Positions 4,899-31,784 of a stretch of 34,016 bases of DNA are shown here, in pieces. The position numbers and the translations under genes were made by a program. A model generated the notes under the pieces. It made no database searches, was not told where the DNA came from, and worked only from the letters and a program-made list of their open reading frames with translations. The stretch lies in contig CALDLU010000075.1 in NCBI GenBank assembly GCA_937915245.1, positions 1 to 34,016 on the forward strand, written 5' to 3'. The DNA comes from an uncultured Clostridia bacterium (GTDB lineage: Bacteria > Bacillota > Clostridia > Christensenellales > UBA1242). Positions within the stretch are counted from its first letter, which is position 1, and every line of letters begins with the position of its first letter.

Positions 4899-4927
4899 TT
4901 GAATACTTTAACCTACCATGGTATAAT
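4899..4927 (+). promoter_or_regulatory. near-consensus promoter TTGAAT-17-TGgTATAAT for the homing-endonuclease gene
   Basis: -35 at 4899-4904, a 17-nt spacer ending in TGG, and a perfect -10 TATAAT at 4922-4927. It is followed by a 12-bp leader stem (4934-4945 / 4974-4985, one G-U that fits the plus strand). Confidence 0.65.
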
Positions 4928-5036
4928 TAATTAGTCGAGGTAATCATTAATAGATTTATATAAGTATCAAAGAGATTATCTCGACAATAAAAACTTTGGT
5001 ACTTGTATAAGTCTATTTTTTTTATAGGAGATTTTT

Positions 5037-5579
5037 ATGAAAGAAATATGGAAAGATATTAAAGGATATGAGGGGTTATATCAAGCAAGTAATCTAGGTA
5101 GGATAAAAAGTATTAGCAAAATGGTTAATGGTTCAAATCAATTTGGAGTTAAATTTAAATATTTAAAGAAAGATAAAATATTAAAACCTGTAATCAATAA
5201 CCACGATTATTTGCAAGTGTCTTTGTACAAAAATAATAAGAAAGTTGAAATAAGAATACACCAACTTGTTGCTCAAACATTTTTGCCCAATCCTAATAAT
5301 TATAAGATTATTAATCATAAAGATGGAAACAAACACAACAATTGTATTGAAAATTTAGAATATTGCACTCAATCTCACAATGTTAATGAAAGTTATCGAT
5401 TAAGATTGCAAACGCCTATCACTAAACGAGTTAATCAATATGATTTAAATAACAATTTTATCAAAACATGGGATAGTATCAATGATGCTAGAAAACATTA
5501 TAATAACTCACATATATCAGATTGTTGCAATGGTCATAGAAAAACCGCCACTGGTTATATTTGGAGATATACAGATTAG
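5037..5579 (+). CDS. free-standing HNH homing endonuclease (NUMOD4 + HNH_3 + C-terminal IENR1-like HTH, I-HmuI type)
   Basis: The N-terminus WKDIKGYEGLYQASNLGRIKS is a NUMOD4 motif. INHKDGNKHNNCIENLEYCTQSHN is the HNH motif. The C-terminal part (WDSINDARKHYNNSHISDCCNGHRKTATGYIWRY) looks like a DNA-binding module. It is the only plus-strand gene inside the late region. Confidence 0.85.
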   Translation: MKEIWKDIKGYEGLYQASNLGRIKSISKMVNGSNQFGVKFKYLKKDKILKPVINNHDYLQVSLYKNNKKVEIRIHQLVAQTFLPNPNNYKIINHKDGNKHNNCIENLEYCTQSHNVNESYRLRLQTPITKRVNQYDLNNNFIKTWDSINDARKHYNNSHISDCCNGHRKTATGYIWRYTD

Positions 5580-6243: not shown

Positions 6244-6269
6244 TTTCTTTTCCTCCATATCTGTTTATA

Positions 6270-6328
6270 AAATGCAAAAGAGAAATAGTAAACCACACTT
6301 GTTTTAAAAATGCTTTAAACTATTTCTC
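6270..6328 (-). terminator. terminator-like hairpin immediately upstream of the 6243 gene RBS
   Basis: 10-bp stem (6280-6289 / 6319-6328) with a large 29-nt loop. It is followed on the minus strand by TTTTGCATTTT. Confidence 0.35.
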
Positions 6329-6386
6329 CTTTCTGTAATCACTCTTGTACAAGTTGAGTACTCTTGTTCTTACATTTTTATTCTAT

Positions 6387-6419
6387 CAAAGAAAAAGAAA
6401 TGAATTTTACTCATTTCTT
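6387..6419 (-). terminator. intrinsic terminator
   Basis: 9-bp stem AAGAAATGA (6395-6403) / TCATTTCTT (6411-6419) with a 7-nt loop. It is followed on the minus strand by TTTTCTTTG. The stem is AT-rich. Confidence 0.5.
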
Positions 6420-6903
6420 ACACAATTATTGTAATTTATGTTTTATTTCGTTTACTTATTGTTTATATATCTATCTACATTTATATTTTTTATTTATTTT
6501 TTTATATATTTTAGTACATTTATATTGACTTTTCTATATATATCAATTACTTTTTTCGAGACTAGATTGGAAGCCTAATATGTTTTTTGGGTACAAAAAC
6601 CCCTTGGAAAGCAAGAGATTTACATTTTATAACTACTTTTTTCTCAACTGAGTTGTTGAGCCATAAAATGGTCTTTGTTATACAAGTATAGTTATTATTC
6701 TGTCCATAACACTTGTATACCCCATTCCAGAAATCCACCAAGATTATTTTTTAGAGTTAGTTCACTTTTCCTAACTTGAAGATAAACAAAATAAAGACCT
6801 CTTTTGTTGTACCTAACTTTTTCTAATGCGTGAGCAAAGTTAAACTTCCTAGTTTTTTGATAACGGTGAAACTAGAGCAAAGAAAACACCTTGCGAAACA
6901 AAT
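6420..6903 (-). ncRNA. ORF-free, hairpin-rich transcript segment between two terminators (candidate ncRNA or long structured leader)
   Basis: No ORF of 60 aa or more on either strand. Hairpins include 6677-6720 (10 bp + 5 bp), 6643-6660, 6757-6778 and 6850-6876. A 6-bp stem at 6873-6890 has a G-U pair that fits only the minus strand. Confidence 0.3.
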
Positions 6904-6992
6904 AAAAAAAGAATACTTATAGACAAGTAGAGTTTTTAAAACGAAGTGAATGGCTCTACCCATCTATAAATATTCTTTCTATTCACTTCGTT
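6904..6992 (-). promoter_or_regulatory. antiterminator/terminator switch (transcription attenuator)
   Basis: On the minus strand, a 12-bp hairpin (6981-6992 with 6940-6951) competes with a 22-bp helix (6954-6975 with 6911-6932). The 22-bp helix has 18 Watson-Crick and 4 G-U pairs and is followed directly by T7 (6904-6910). The 3' arm of the first hairpin lies in the loop of the second. The G-U pairs would be A-C mismatches on the plus strand. Confidence 0.6.
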
Positions 6993-7008
6993 ATTCTTAT
7001 ACAAGTCA

Positions 7009-7037
7009 AGTATACTATAAATAAAAGAATAAATCAA
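7009..7037 (-). promoter_or_regulatory. sigma-A-type promoter TTGATT-17-TATACT
   Basis: -35 at 7037-7032 and -10 at 7014-7009. The predicted start lies about 10 nt upstream of the attenuator. Confidence 0.5.
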
Positions 7038-7177
7038 GTAGTAAAATTAAAAAAATAAATATCTTAATAAACATAGTTTTAAGAAAGATTTGTTAAAAGG
7101 CATAGAATTACACTAGAAATATGAAAACATTGCTCTAAATGGCTAAAAATGAGTAATTTGGGCATAAAAAAAGATAA

Positions 7178-7378
7178 CTACAATATCTTCATTATCTTTT
7201 TCTTAATTTTATGTATTTCTTTACTGATTAAACTCTCACTACAATTTTCTTTCATAGCCATTTGAACTATGGACATATTCTTAATCCTATACTCGAATAT
7301 TCTCTTTTGAAAATCATTTAGCATTAGTTCTTCACATATTTTATTATATTCTGTTCTTGTAAAATCTAGTTTAAGCAT
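7178..7378 (-). CDS. 66-aa sigma-70 region-4 / LuxR-type HTH protein (putative transcription regulator)
   Basis: LNDFQKRIFEYRIKNMSIVQMAMKENCSESLISKEIHKIKKKI matches the region-4 HTH pattern (x-Q-x-x-i-...-s-x-x-e-i-A-...-V-x-x-x-i). There is a TAATG overlap with the upstream small ORF. Confidence 0.55.
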   Translation of the reverse strand: MLKLDFTRTEYNKICEELMLNDFQKRIFEYRIKNMSIVQMAMKENCSESLISKEIHKIKKKIMKIL

Positions 7379-7500
7379 TATTTATGCCCCATATACTTAC
7401 CACAAAGTTTACATCTTCTTCGACCTTGTTTGTCTTTTTTGGTGTTAGATTTGCGATATTTGGTTGTACGAGTTGTTTTATTTATTTTCAATGTTGCCAT
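7378..7500 (-). CDS. 40-aa highly basic peptide with a CxxC motif (below ORF-track cut-off)
   Basis: ATG at 7500 follows AGGTGG with an 8-nt spacer. Translation: MATLKINKTTRTTKYRKSNTKKDKQGRRRCKLCGKYMGHK. It is translationally coupled (TAATG) to the HTH gene. Confidence 0.45.
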   Translation of the reverse strand: MATLKINKTTRTTKYRKSNTKKDKQGRRRCKLCGKYMGHK

Positions 7501-20792: not shown

Positions 20793-20980
20793 ATTATCAT
20801 CTCCCTTTCCTACAGTGATTTTACGGTTCACCAACCTTGAATAGAGATTTATGTATTGTCATTTGTTTACGCACAAATGTTAAAGCCTTTATTATTGGCA
20901 CAGGTTCTAGGCTATGCTCCCAGTTTTTTGGTTTTGGAGACCAATGTTTTTCTAATTAAACTAAACCCACATCTAAAGGG

Positions 20981-31148: not shown

Positions 31149-31784
31149 TTATTCTCCTTTATGTTCAGTATCAGAATATTCTATAATTTTGTTGTTTTTC
31201 ATCCTTACATATTTAGTTACTATGTTCTTATAATTAATTACAAAACCCTCAACACTTCTATTAACTTTAGAACAATACTTTTCATAGATACTATCTAAAT
31301 ATTCCTTATTAGGTAAAACTTGTAATTCAGTAACTTCTGGAACTATACCAATAAAATTTGGAATTACATTACTAATAAATGGATATATAAATAATTCATG
31401 GTCATATATTAAATTATATAATTCAAAATCATCATTAACATTTGCTTTTGCAAACATATACCATCTTTTATCAAAAGTACCAATATCATATTTAATAGCC
31501 CCCATACCTAACCATTCACCACAAATAGCAGCATTATTGTATAATTCTCTATCAAGCACTTCTTTATTATCTAAAAGCCATTGATATAACCCTTTGTATA
31601 ATATACCCTTTTGTTCTTCTATCTCCGAAACTAAAATAATATTATTTCTTTGTGCTATGTATAATTCATCAAATTTTTTAAATATAACTAAATTACTACC
31701 ATCTAATTTTTCAGTTAAATATACTTTATCTCCTAAAATACTTATTCTTTTTGTTTTAGGATACATTGATTTTTTTATCATCAT
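31149..31784 (-). CDS. stand-alone Rnl2-like RNA ligase (nucleotidyltransferase domain only)
   Basis: Candidate motifs are I TEKLDGSN, III ICGEWLG, IV VEGFVINY and V KYVRMKNNK, in the canonical order and spacing of the RNA_ligase/Rnl2 adenylyltransferase fold. Size is 211 aa. Confidence 0.6.
   Translation of the reverse strand: MMIKKSMYPKTKRISILGDKVYLTEKLDGSNLVIFKKFDELYIAQRNNIILVSEIEEQKGILYKGLYQWLLDNKEVLDRELYNNAAICGEWLGMGAIKYDIGTFDKRWYMFAKANVNDDFELYNLIYDHELFIYPFISNVIPNFIGIVPEVTELQVLPNKEYLDSIYEKYCSKVNRSVEGFVINYKNIVTKYVRMKNNKIIEYSDTEHKGE

Follow-up and report, generated by a model that had tools for sequence, protein, structure and literature searches.

Introduction

Regulatory hairpins or terminators stand before several homing-endonuclease genes of phages, namely I-TevI, I-TevII, I-TevIII and segB of T4, mobE of Aeh1 and seg43(25) of Aeromonas phage 25; the T4-type hairpins act by sequestering the ribosome-binding site (RBS), and transcription from an internal late promoter circumvents them (PMC2988022). 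In P4, the CI RNA is made from the very leader it controls, and its pairing with seqA and seqC leads to termination (PMC4825925). Antisense-RNA attenuation in pT181 and pIP501 relies on alternative folds of the leader, which decide between termination and read-through (PMC2879508). Here we analyse an RNA leader found in a stretch of 34,016 nucleotides deposited as DNA of an uncultured Clostridia bacterium (contig CALDLU010000075.1; we call this whole stretch the window). The window represents most of the genome of a low-G+C tailed phage whose late genes are on the minus strand. The leader lies in a gap of about 930 bp (positions 6244-7177) and is made of two interleaved helices, A:A' and B:B', placed between a predicted promoter and an inserted stretch free of open reading frames (ORFs). 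We refer to whatever follows such a leader as its cargo.

The evidence gives good support to the view that this leader represents a new class of RNA motif of a known general kind, in that its proposed function is attenuator-like and its defining parts are unlike those of each family tested. We further propose, with a probability of about 0.6, that it acts as a co-transcriptional (kinetic) attenuator that keeps the expression of the inserted cassette low or conditional.

Results

Two interleaved helices between a promoter and a U-run

A first-pass annotation of the gap had placed a promoter, TTGATT-17-TATACT, at 7037-7009. It is present, and it is kept in the close relatives L016, L035 and L038 (L-numbers designate the related phage loci fetched for comparison, whose contigs were gathered by exact-protein look-ups of the helix-turn-helix (HTH) gene upstream of the gap and of its homologues). 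Taken alone, this promoter (P1) is not above chance, since the scan gave 16 promoter-like sites where 20 were expected. A -10 element, mostly TGnTATAAT, is found at the equivalent upstream place before all 16 related leaders described below.

The short helix is Watson-Crick paired over its entire length, as had been noted (6992-6981 with 6951-6940; Table 1). The existence of the long helix, its four G-U pairs and its run into a stretch of seven T were also recovered, and only its length of 22 bp had to be revised: 6980-6954 pairs with 6932-6906 in 25-27 pairs. When folded, the minus-strand RNA reached −33.3 kcal/mol (z −5.6) and the plus strand −23.2. The element is indeed strand-specific, with a covariance-model score of 95 bits in sense and 41 in antisense and two to six G-U pairs in the long helix of each of the 16 versions. 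Because of these G-U pairs, and because the sense score is about twice the antisense one, we assign the RNA signal to the strand that carries the cargo. We then searched the whole window for the architecture, defined as a long helix with a U-run and a second helix between the 5' flank of the long helix and its loop. This revealed two real copies and one low-complexity match, and none in five shuffles.

The arms A (6992-6981) and A' (6951-6940) overlap neither B (6980-6954) nor B' (6932-6906). Their order is that of an H-type pseudoknot (S1a-S2a-S1b-S2b), and both stems show the covariation expected of one. The two helices had been described as mutually exclusive. This holds in so far as they are not complete at the same time, but they are not an antiterminator and a terminator competing for a shared strand, since the arms interleave without common nucleotides. 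The exclusion is probably steric or topological, and partial: linkers of 0-4 nt around a helix of 25 bp would argue against full coexistence of A:A' and B:B'.

How does this arrangement compare with the usual termination devices? As in an intrinsic terminator, a stem-loop directly precedes a U-tract, B:B' running into U7 (6910-6904), and there is a T-run in all 16 versions. As in a classical attenuator, the alternative helix forms first and has a comparable energy at the decision point; it does not, as in that class, use nucleotides of the 5' arm of the terminator. The suggestion of a riboswitch-like element is not tenable. The transcript is predicted to start at, or a few nt from, helix A in the relatives and about 10 nt upstream of A in the window lineage, so there is no space for an aptamer, and no conserved aptamer was found upstream. 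In addition, helix A is hypervariable, and the leader has no match in Rfam. That no described element resembles this sequence was confirmed by searches of Rfam at the gathering threshold and at E ≤10, which returned no relevant match in the gap. The only match of the window was a tRNA elsewhere, and the best one in the gap was a plant microRNA model at 29.7 bits for a threshold of 72.

A recurrent class of leaders in related phages

We identified 16 distinct versions of the leader in the related phages, one of which is in the window itself. These sequences show that the leader belongs to a recurrent class of RNA leaders acting in cis. In this phage family they are placed after a promoter and before the RBS of an inserted gene, in most cases that of a free-standing HNH homing endonuclease. 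The versions have largely unrelated sequences and the same layout, A-B-A'-B'-U-run. The -10 element (mostly TGnTATAAT) is followed after 5-7 nt in most versions, and after about 16-27 nt in the window lineage, by A (11-14 nt), a linker of 0-4 nt, B (23-32 nt), a linker of 0-3 nt, A', an A-rich linker of 4-8 nt, B' and the U-run. In most of the copies with gene cargo, the RBS is within about 30 nt of the end of the leader. Seven of the 16 leaders precede NUMOD4/HNH genes (the copy at window position 4934, those of L026, L056, L064, L052 and L060, and a minus-strand copy in L017), and the others precede ORFs of 103-252 aa. The window lineage is the only one with ORF-free cargo.

The second copy of the window is directly upstream of the ATG (5037) of a free-standing NUMOD4/HNH endonuclease gene (5037-5579; Pfam), which is oriented opposite to the surrounding late genes. 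We built a covariance model from nine leaders, encoding B:B' only. This second copy was absent from the training set and was matched at E 6.7e-6; overall, the model recovered untrained copies at E 7e-6 to 6e-4.

Covariation in relatives had been put forward as a check on the two helices, and it shows that both are under selection. With the arms of the 16 leaders registered by hand, A:A' is 100% paired and B:B' 99%, and double-sided changes affect 11 of 11 and 22 of 23 pairs, respectively, values reached by none of 1000 shuffles. We also used an ordinary MAFFT alignment that was not fitted to the structure. In this alignment 92% of the cells are paired, compared with 72% in column shuffles and 38-55% after an offset of 1-3 columns between the partners. 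Double-sided changes are found in 25 of 33 pairs (12/12 in A:A' and 13/21 in B:B'), which was matched by none of 500 shuffles.

The short helix is hypervariable in the window lineage

Three of the related loci, L016, L035 and L038, carry the cassette of the window. The non-coding DNA around it differs by 3-6.5%, and the third codon positions of the HTH gene by 6-10%. Arms A and A', in contrast, differ at 41-73% of their positions among these phages, while pairing is kept at 100% (Fisher p ≤1e-8 for five of the six pairs). There are four A/A' alleles in near-identical phages, each compensated, in a non-coding context that is otherwise 94-97% identical, and arm B is identical to within one base among the alleles of this lineage. 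This indicates that A:A' changes faster than the local neutral rate, which may result from diversifying selection, or from the import of diverged alleles, acting on a helix that must stay paired.

The hypervariability is restricted to the window lineage: the A and A' arms of HNH-associated leaders differ by just 1-3 nt. The sequences of the HTH protein and of a small basic peptide encoded upstream do not change with the A allele, and we found no second target for arm A in the window beyond chance. Heteroimmune relatives such as P1 and P7 have compensated differences in just the complementary c4 segments. The window lineage shows a pattern of this type, with complementary leader segments that carry allele-specific compensated differences between close relatives.

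The leader opens an inserted cassette with a conserved ORF-free cargo

The gap is composite. It contains an inserted cassette and a resident unit, i.e. two promoter-leader units in tandem. The cassette is self-contained and spans approximately 7056-6437 on the minus strand. It includes a promoter of the sigma-A type, a leader of 87 nt, a conserved RNA of about 350 nt that is free of ORFs, and an AT-rich spacer; the terminator at 6419-6388 closes it. The two flanking genes are just 150-350 bp apart in L001-L004, and in L017 exactly 7056-6437 is swapped for 1477 bp with two ORFs, both flanks being retained. Since relatives either lack 7056-6437 or, in the case of L017, have another cargo between the same flanks, we regard it as a cassette inserted at a hot spot. 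The left flank is common to L017 in spite of the different cargo and is lacking in the relatives devoid of the cassette. The right flank (6437-6264), which includes the hairpin T2, is 95% identical to that of L017, and T2 is also kept in L016, L035 and L038. The two ORFs of L017 (4519-5812, plus strand), which encode 252 and 182 aa, share this insertion point and likewise follow a leader of this class. From its N terminus, the former looks like a replisome organiser or a DnaD-type winged helix; NCBIfam gave no match.

These results change how the rest of the gap should be read. The downstream hairpins reported by the first-pass annotation are there: 6419-6388 and 6334-6276 both fold and both are kept in relatives. 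Yet they are not part of three terminators in series behind one promoter, because a second predicted promoter (TGATAGAAT, 6388-6380) separates the second hairpin from the third, and likewise in relatives. Processive antitermination of a downstream cassette can be set aside as well, given that 7056-6437 is an insertion and that the last hairpin belongs to the separate resident promoter-leader unit of most relatives. Hence, the original picture of a strand-specific RNA with competing helices that controls what follows is retained, with the inserted cassette, rather than the downstream operon, as the regulated entity.

The cargo of the window does not look like a gene. As initially observed, the gap has no ORF of at least 60 aa, the longest on either strand having 59 aa. 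No single reassignment of a stop codon opens a frame (TAA, TAG and TGA are abundant in all six), and the phage tRNAs (Cys-GCA and Trp-CCA) are not suppressors. The 59-aa ORF has a TTG start and no RBS, and most substitutions in it are non-synonymous when the variants are translated by hand. We considered that the cargo could be a decayed gene and rejected this, as tblastx searches of every related locus and of the remaining window sequence matched only the AT-rich low-complexity spacer.

Instead, several features suggest a structured RNA. Additional hairpins had been noted downstream of the long helix, and in the cargo hairpins are predicted at 6894-6877, about 6876-6850 and 6720-6677. The cargo (6903-6560) is 97-100% identical between the window and L016, whose genomes average about 88%. 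Among its four variants, 25 of 357 columns vary, and eight of these 25 are accounted for by four adjacent and fully compensated pairs of one long-range helix of 7 bp (6799-6793 with 6676-6670): GGUC/GACC becomes ACCA/UGGU (6799-6796 with 6673-6670) in L035 and L038. The other substitutions fall mainly in loops predicted for the minus strand, a prediction that used the same sequences. The AT-rich spacer downstream is variable in length, with a deletion of 10 nt in L016 and one of 32 nt in L035 and L038.

Searches for the cargo elsewhere returned little. It has no match in Rfam or in GenBank phages or plasmids, and nhmmer over all fetched loci gave no homologue outside the window lineage. Two exact-pattern scans of IMG/VR retrieved only contig 146054. 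A degenerate scan of JGI metagenomes gave one true match, which scores like the L016 variant on the cargo profile, and 14 chance matches in high-GC contigs. We read the cargo as a candidate lineage-specific structured non-coding RNA that would be produced only upon read-through of the leader.

Folding order and the proposed mechanism

The order in which the helices become available during transcription favours A:A'. In each of the nine leaders tested, A:A' is the predicted fold of a nascent RNA that extends as far as A' (−14 to −22 kcal/mol). The stacking energy of A:A' (−17 to −22 kcal/mol) equals or exceeds that of the basal 8-12 AU-rich bp of B:B' (−9 to −17 kcal/mol). When the window transcript was grown in a model restricted to nested folds, A:A' was the minimum-energy fold from 60 to 78 nt and B:B' from 84 nt on. 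At 84 nt the B:B' fold is just about 1 kcal/mol lower (−15.5, compared with −14.5 for the A:A' fold up to 78 nt), and by this length the polymerase has reached or passed the U-run, given its footprint of about 12-14 nt.

The kinetic attenuator that we propose would work as follows. Helix A:A' would form once A' leaves the polymerase. Arm B would then be in the loop of A:A', and the B' arm would zip onto it from the apex. With linkers of only 0-4 nt, the AU-rich and wobble-containing base of B:B', next to the U-run, could close only if A:A' opens. The competition between A:A' and the base of B:B' would thus set the fraction of polymerases that terminate at the U-run versus those that enter the cargo. 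The expected effect is a low or conditional expression of the cassette, with insulation of the neighbouring phage genes. The geometry is consistent with such a competition: a complete B helix of 25 bp (about 70 Å) with junctions of 0-4 nt should pull the ends of B apart, so that the innermost pairs of A:A' could not hold.

Two other mechanisms were considered and discarded. An internal late promoter in B', which has a conserved TATAAGT, was rejected since the motif occurs in the window about as often as expected (15 times for 16 expected). Attenuation by a leader peptide was rejected because short ORFs starting from B exist in some versions and in none of the HNH-associated ones, and because variation in the length of the U-run breaks the frame in the window lineage.

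Several observations weigh against the kinetic attenuator. Typical intrinsic terminators have a short G+C-rich stem (about 5-12 bp) and a small loop. The stem is here of 25-32 bp, AU-rich, with two to six G-U pairs and a loop of about 21 nt, and the consensus scan made no terminator call. Full-length B:B' is far stabler than the nested fold that keeps A:A' (−33.3 versus −16.8 kcal/mol). The terminator should win at equilibrium, and therefore any anti-termination would have to be kinetic or factor-assisted. The two helices may also partially coexist. Because the architecture itself served as the search pattern for several of the 16 leaders, the percentages of paired positions given above are inflated; this does not affect the homologous comparisons (window with L016, L035, L038 and L017) or the matches of the covariance model. 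The promoter, termination at the U-run and read-through are predictions. Concerning the cargo, the support for its structure comes from one helix in four variants, its folding z-score is about −2 with both strands scoring equally, and its high identity could reflect a recent spread of the cassette.

Alternative explanations

The hypervariability of the short helix raises the possibility that it determines specificity in a self-specific RNA-RNA control loop, like those of P4 immunity or P1/P7 c4. The terminated leader RNA would pair in trans through A or A', thereby blocking A:A' and enforcing termination, and helix A would diversify against cross-regulation. The terminated fold, which shows A' in its apical loop of 21 nt and leaves A unpaired as a free 5' tail, would allow this, with pairing partners on nascent RNA from the same cassette, or from a relative that is resident or co-infects. 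The excess of divergence in A and A' (41-73%, versus 3-6.5% in the surroundings) with full pairing is in line with this idea, for which P4 CI RNA (PMC4825925) and the antisense attenuation of pT181 and pIP501 (PMC2879508) provide precedents, and the resemblance of the first cargo ORF of L017 (252 aa) to a replisome organiser, read from its N terminus with no NCBIfam match, would also fit. We nevertheless think it unlikely: trans action is without support, no other site of the window matches A, neither lysogeny nor co-infection is documented for the phage, and the hypervariability is confined to one lineage, with four alleles, A/A' of HNH-associated leaders differing by just 1-3 nt. A broader version is similarly doubtful. 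In it, A:A' would be the address label of a self-recognising RNA switch on mobile phage cassettes, pairing in trans only with nascent leaders of the same label, which would result in copy-number-like feedback or in exclusion between phages, with the cargo as a new structured RNA under its control. Such a switch would be an analogue of P4 or P1/P7 immunity, embodied in a fold that sets a pseudoknot against a terminator. The hypervariable arms could also act as the seed of a small RNA, if the terminated RNA of roughly 95 nt were itself the product, with the long hairpin as body and terminator and the cargo as a separate feature or meaningless read-through. A promoter, a highly structured 95-nt RNA and U7 do make a complete small-RNA gene, and no ORF follows the window copy. 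However, 12 of the 16 versions are followed by an RBS and an ORF at a distance of up to about 30 nt (about 70 nt for the plus-strand copy of L017) with no promoter in between, which is the position of a 5' untranslated region. The cargo is also more conserved than coding genes, and no target of A or A' was found in the window, which leaves this explanation quite improbable.

Factors acting on the leader from outside were also considered. A phage antiterminator or RNA-binding protein could recognise it, much as in the N/nut or Q systems, and allow read-through of this terminator and the following ones. Two candidates are the HTH protein of 66 aa, which is sigma-region-4-like, and the basic CxxC peptide of 40 aa; their genes are conserved neighbours directly upstream of the leaders in the relatives checked. 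The A-rich linker of the ABA'B' leaders (UAAAAAC-like) resembles the UUUAAAAC loop of the H3 leader described below, nearly invariant in 15 relatives, and there is a weak match to Phage_antitermQ (Pfam, E 0.058, below threshold). Still, all protein similarities are sub-threshold and point equally to generic sigma-70 region 4 or GerE-type HTH domains. Both protein sequences are the same in phages with different A:A', the second window copy is on the opposite strand and far from both genes, and UUAAAAC is not enriched in the window as a general signal (20 found, 21 expected). A protein site thus has a low probability in our view. Even less probable is that the interleaved repeats act as DNA, either as a recombination or homing target or as an attC-like single-strand fold marking the ends of mobile cassettes. 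The leaders are tied to inserted and exchangeable cassettes and to homing endonuclease genes, and their structure is conserved while the sequence varies, as in attC sites. On the other hand, they always lie between promoter and RBS, in the sense orientation of the cargo and with a U-run at the end. Their two to six G-U wobbles per long helix are all on the transcribed strand, and neither a DNA repeat nor protein half-sites would need them. There is no adjacent recombinase gene, and the cassette boundary defined by L017 (7056) is upstream of the promoter instead of at the element.

The resident unit and its surroundings

The resident unit starts with the promoter P2, and the succession of a terminator U-run and a -10-like hexamer precedes the H3 leader in relatives too. 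The P2-equivalent -10 is of the TGnTAnAAT type in L004, L025 and L026 and lacks the TG elsewhere, e.g. TATACT in L044-L046. The long hairpin of H3 has a Shine-Dalgarno-like 5' arm (AGAAAGGAGAAAUAGU, 6334-6319) and a pyrimidine-rich 3' arm (ACUAUUUCUCUUUU, 6289-6276) followed by U-rich sequence, and in the window its loop carries UUAAAAC (6307-6301). H3 lies upstream of the homologues of the 6243 gene in about 30 loci (e.g. L001 3920-3994 and L022 3290-3393). Across 15 relatives its outer helix persists through covarying changes, and the UUUAAAAC loop hardly varies. The Shine-Dalgarno-like arm AGAAAGGAG pairs with a CUCUUUU 3' arm that resembles the 3' end of 16S, and the real RBS is directly downstream. 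H3 may be a terminator or a ribosome-interacting element; no Rfam family matched it.

An imperfect 18-nt motif with the core ACTTGTAyAA has three minus-strand copies that are 83-84% identical to one another. They lie over the -10 and start of P1 (7012-6995), inside the cargo hairpin 6720-6677 (6692-6675) and in the small hairpin upstream of H3 (6360-6343). The motif might be a protein-binding site or the trace of a duplication.

The 66-aa protein encoded upstream of the gap is preceded by the basic peptide (7378-7500, minus strand; 40 aa in the window), which has 29-44 aa in relatives. The peptide is very basic, is always directly upstream of the HTH gene, and is found at the equivalent position in L001-L003 and L013-L015 as well. 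In most relatives its C terminus has a CxxCG(K/R)(F/Y)M motif. It looks like an arginine-rich RNA-binding peptide or the N terminus of a small zinc-ribbon ribosomal protein; no family matched it.

The phage itself is distant from those described. Its large terminase is at most about 25% identical to that of any GenBank phage, and the gap has no DNA match among GenBank phages or PLSDB plasmids. The close relatives come from pig and other gut metagenomes. The sole hint of a host is one member of the phage family named from a metagenome-assembled genome of Candidatus Onthovivens, and two scans of the GTDB representative genomes with the HTH protein or its profile gave no relative.

The window also encodes tRNA-Cys(GCA), tRNA-Trp(CCA) and an RNA ligase family gene (PF09414), at 2336-2409, 20896-20970 and 31149-31784, all on the minus strand. 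The two tRNAs and the ligase may provide tRNA supply or repair against host anticodon nucleases. A tRNA gene, with the anticodon GCA read by eye (tRNA-Cys), was also observed in six related loci (L046 2960-3230, L051 2640-2900, L058 3080-3330, L061 3540-3770, L065 3105-3400 and L055 3050-3330). In most of them it is followed by a strong promoter, TTGACA...TATAAT. Next come a leader with a long-range hairpin, GAACTAGA...TCTAGTTC, with a C-rich core, and then a terminator and TGnTATAAT before the holin and lysin genes. It represents a further leader of the phage family that is both conserved and structured.

Table 1. Coordinates of the features in and around the gap, with both copies of the leader.
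Feature	Position	Strand	Description and basis
66-aa HTH gene	7378-7178	−	upstream neighbour of the gap
Left flank of the insertion	7057-7160	−	about 100 nt of conserved non-coding DNA between the HTH-gene terminator and the cassette
Promoter P1	7009-7037	−	-35 TTGATT 7037-7032, 17-nt spacer, -10 TATACT 7014-7009; consensus scan; predicted start near 7001
Arm A (AACGAAGUGAAU)	6981-6992	−	5' arm of the short helix; 12/12 pairs with A'
Arm B	6954-6980	−	5' arm of the long helix, in the loop of A:A'; covaries across 16 leaders
Arm A' (AUUCACUUCGUU)	6940-6951	−	in the loop of B:B'; followed by the A-rich linker UUAAAAA 6939-6933
Arm B' running into U7 (6910-6904)	6904-6932	−	conserved UAUAAGU, whose G forms a U-G wobble with B, kept in 14/16 leaders
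Cargo, candidate structured RNA	6560-6903	−	hairpins 6894-6877, about 6876-6850 and 6720-6677 (predicted) and a long-range helix
AT-rich variable spacer	6438-6559	−	two 29-nt direct repeats, 6459-6487 and 6498-6526
Hairpin T2, terminator-like (AAGAAAUGA / UCAUUUCUU and U-run)	6388-6419	−	fold; predicted to end the cassette transcript
Resident promoter P2, extended -10 TGATAGAAT	6380-6388	−	abuts the U-run of T2; putative, from sequence
H3 leader	6276-6367	−	small 5' hairpin 6367-6349 and long hairpin 6334-6276 (fold)
RBS GGAGG of the 6243 gene	6256-6252	−	read from sequence
Downstream gene (phrog_21718, function unassigned)	likely true start ATG 6243-6241	−	MYNQYNPY...; homologues start at the equivalent ATG
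Second leader copy in the window	4919-5036	+	extended -10 TGGTATAAT 4919-4927; A 4934-4945, B 4949-4972, A' 4974-4985, B' 4994-5017; U-run, RBS

Discussion

If our interpretation is correct, the inserted cassettes of uncultivated gut phages, with homing-endonuclease genes or other cargo, carry with them an uncatalogued RNA leader motif that is supported by covariation. To our knowledge, what is known of how free-standing homing endonucleases are regulated comes almost entirely from T4-like phages. The design is unusual in that the anti-terminating helix is threaded through the terminator with no nucleotides in common. We know of fast diversification with pairing always kept otherwise from immunity and incompatibility RNAs, and the diversifying helix hints at RNA-based discrimination between self and non-self among phages. 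At the level of the locus, a 930-bp 'intergenic region' is resolved into two transcription units and an insertion, and the 16 sequences can serve to build a searchable model.

The leader shares traits with several families of regulatory RNAs. Like lambda nut/N, HK022 put and lambdoid Q/qut, it is a promoter-proximal structured RNA in a phage late region followed by terminators. It differs from them by having no boxA/boxB or put-like layout of two hairpins; furthermore, the downstream 'terminators' are in separate promoter-bearing units, and the similarity to Q is sub-threshold. With the platforms of preQ1-I and fluoride riboswitches it has in common the order of an H-type pseudoknot, a short junction, an A-rich third loop and a terminator directly after. 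In contrast to these, it has no conserved ligand pocket, one of its stems is hypervariable, there is next to no sequence upstream of A, the second 'stem' is a helix of 25-32 bp, and Rfam gives no match.

The attenuation of rep in pT181, pIP501 and pAMbeta1 is closer in one respect, since it is of Firmicutes type and leader folds gate a cargo gene. However, the pT181 type needs a counter-transcript from the opposite strand, and our consensus scan found no plus-strand promoter-like site at 6670-7078. Moreover, the pre-emptor helix of these systems shares nucleotides with the terminator, while none are shared here. P4 (CI RNA, seqA/seqB/seqC) and P1/P7 c4 resemble the leader in having complementary segments in one leader transcript and premature termination as the output. 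Here the complementary segment is inside the loop of the terminator itself. Unlike in P4 and c4, processing and trans action would be conjectural here; the host and the type of phage differ, and there is no sequence similarity or Rfam match.

In functional terms, the nearest analogues are the hairpins and terminators by which T4-like phages hold their homing-endonuclease genes in check. Some differences are clear. The RBS is not sequestered here, as it lies 8-25 nt beyond the hairpin in the copy at window position 4934 and in others. The hairpin ends in a U-run and has a second conserved helix interleaved with it, no internal promoter signal was found (TATAAGT is not enriched), and there is no sequence relationship. 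The arrangement of seg43(25) is similar in that its hairpin is just upstream of the RBS and leaves it uncovered. In both the T4-type systems and the leaders described here, a very stable RNA hairpin lies directly upstream of an endonuclease gene, free-standing or intron-borne in the former, where it is thought to limit the expression of the endonuclease and to protect the transcription programme of the neighbouring genes.

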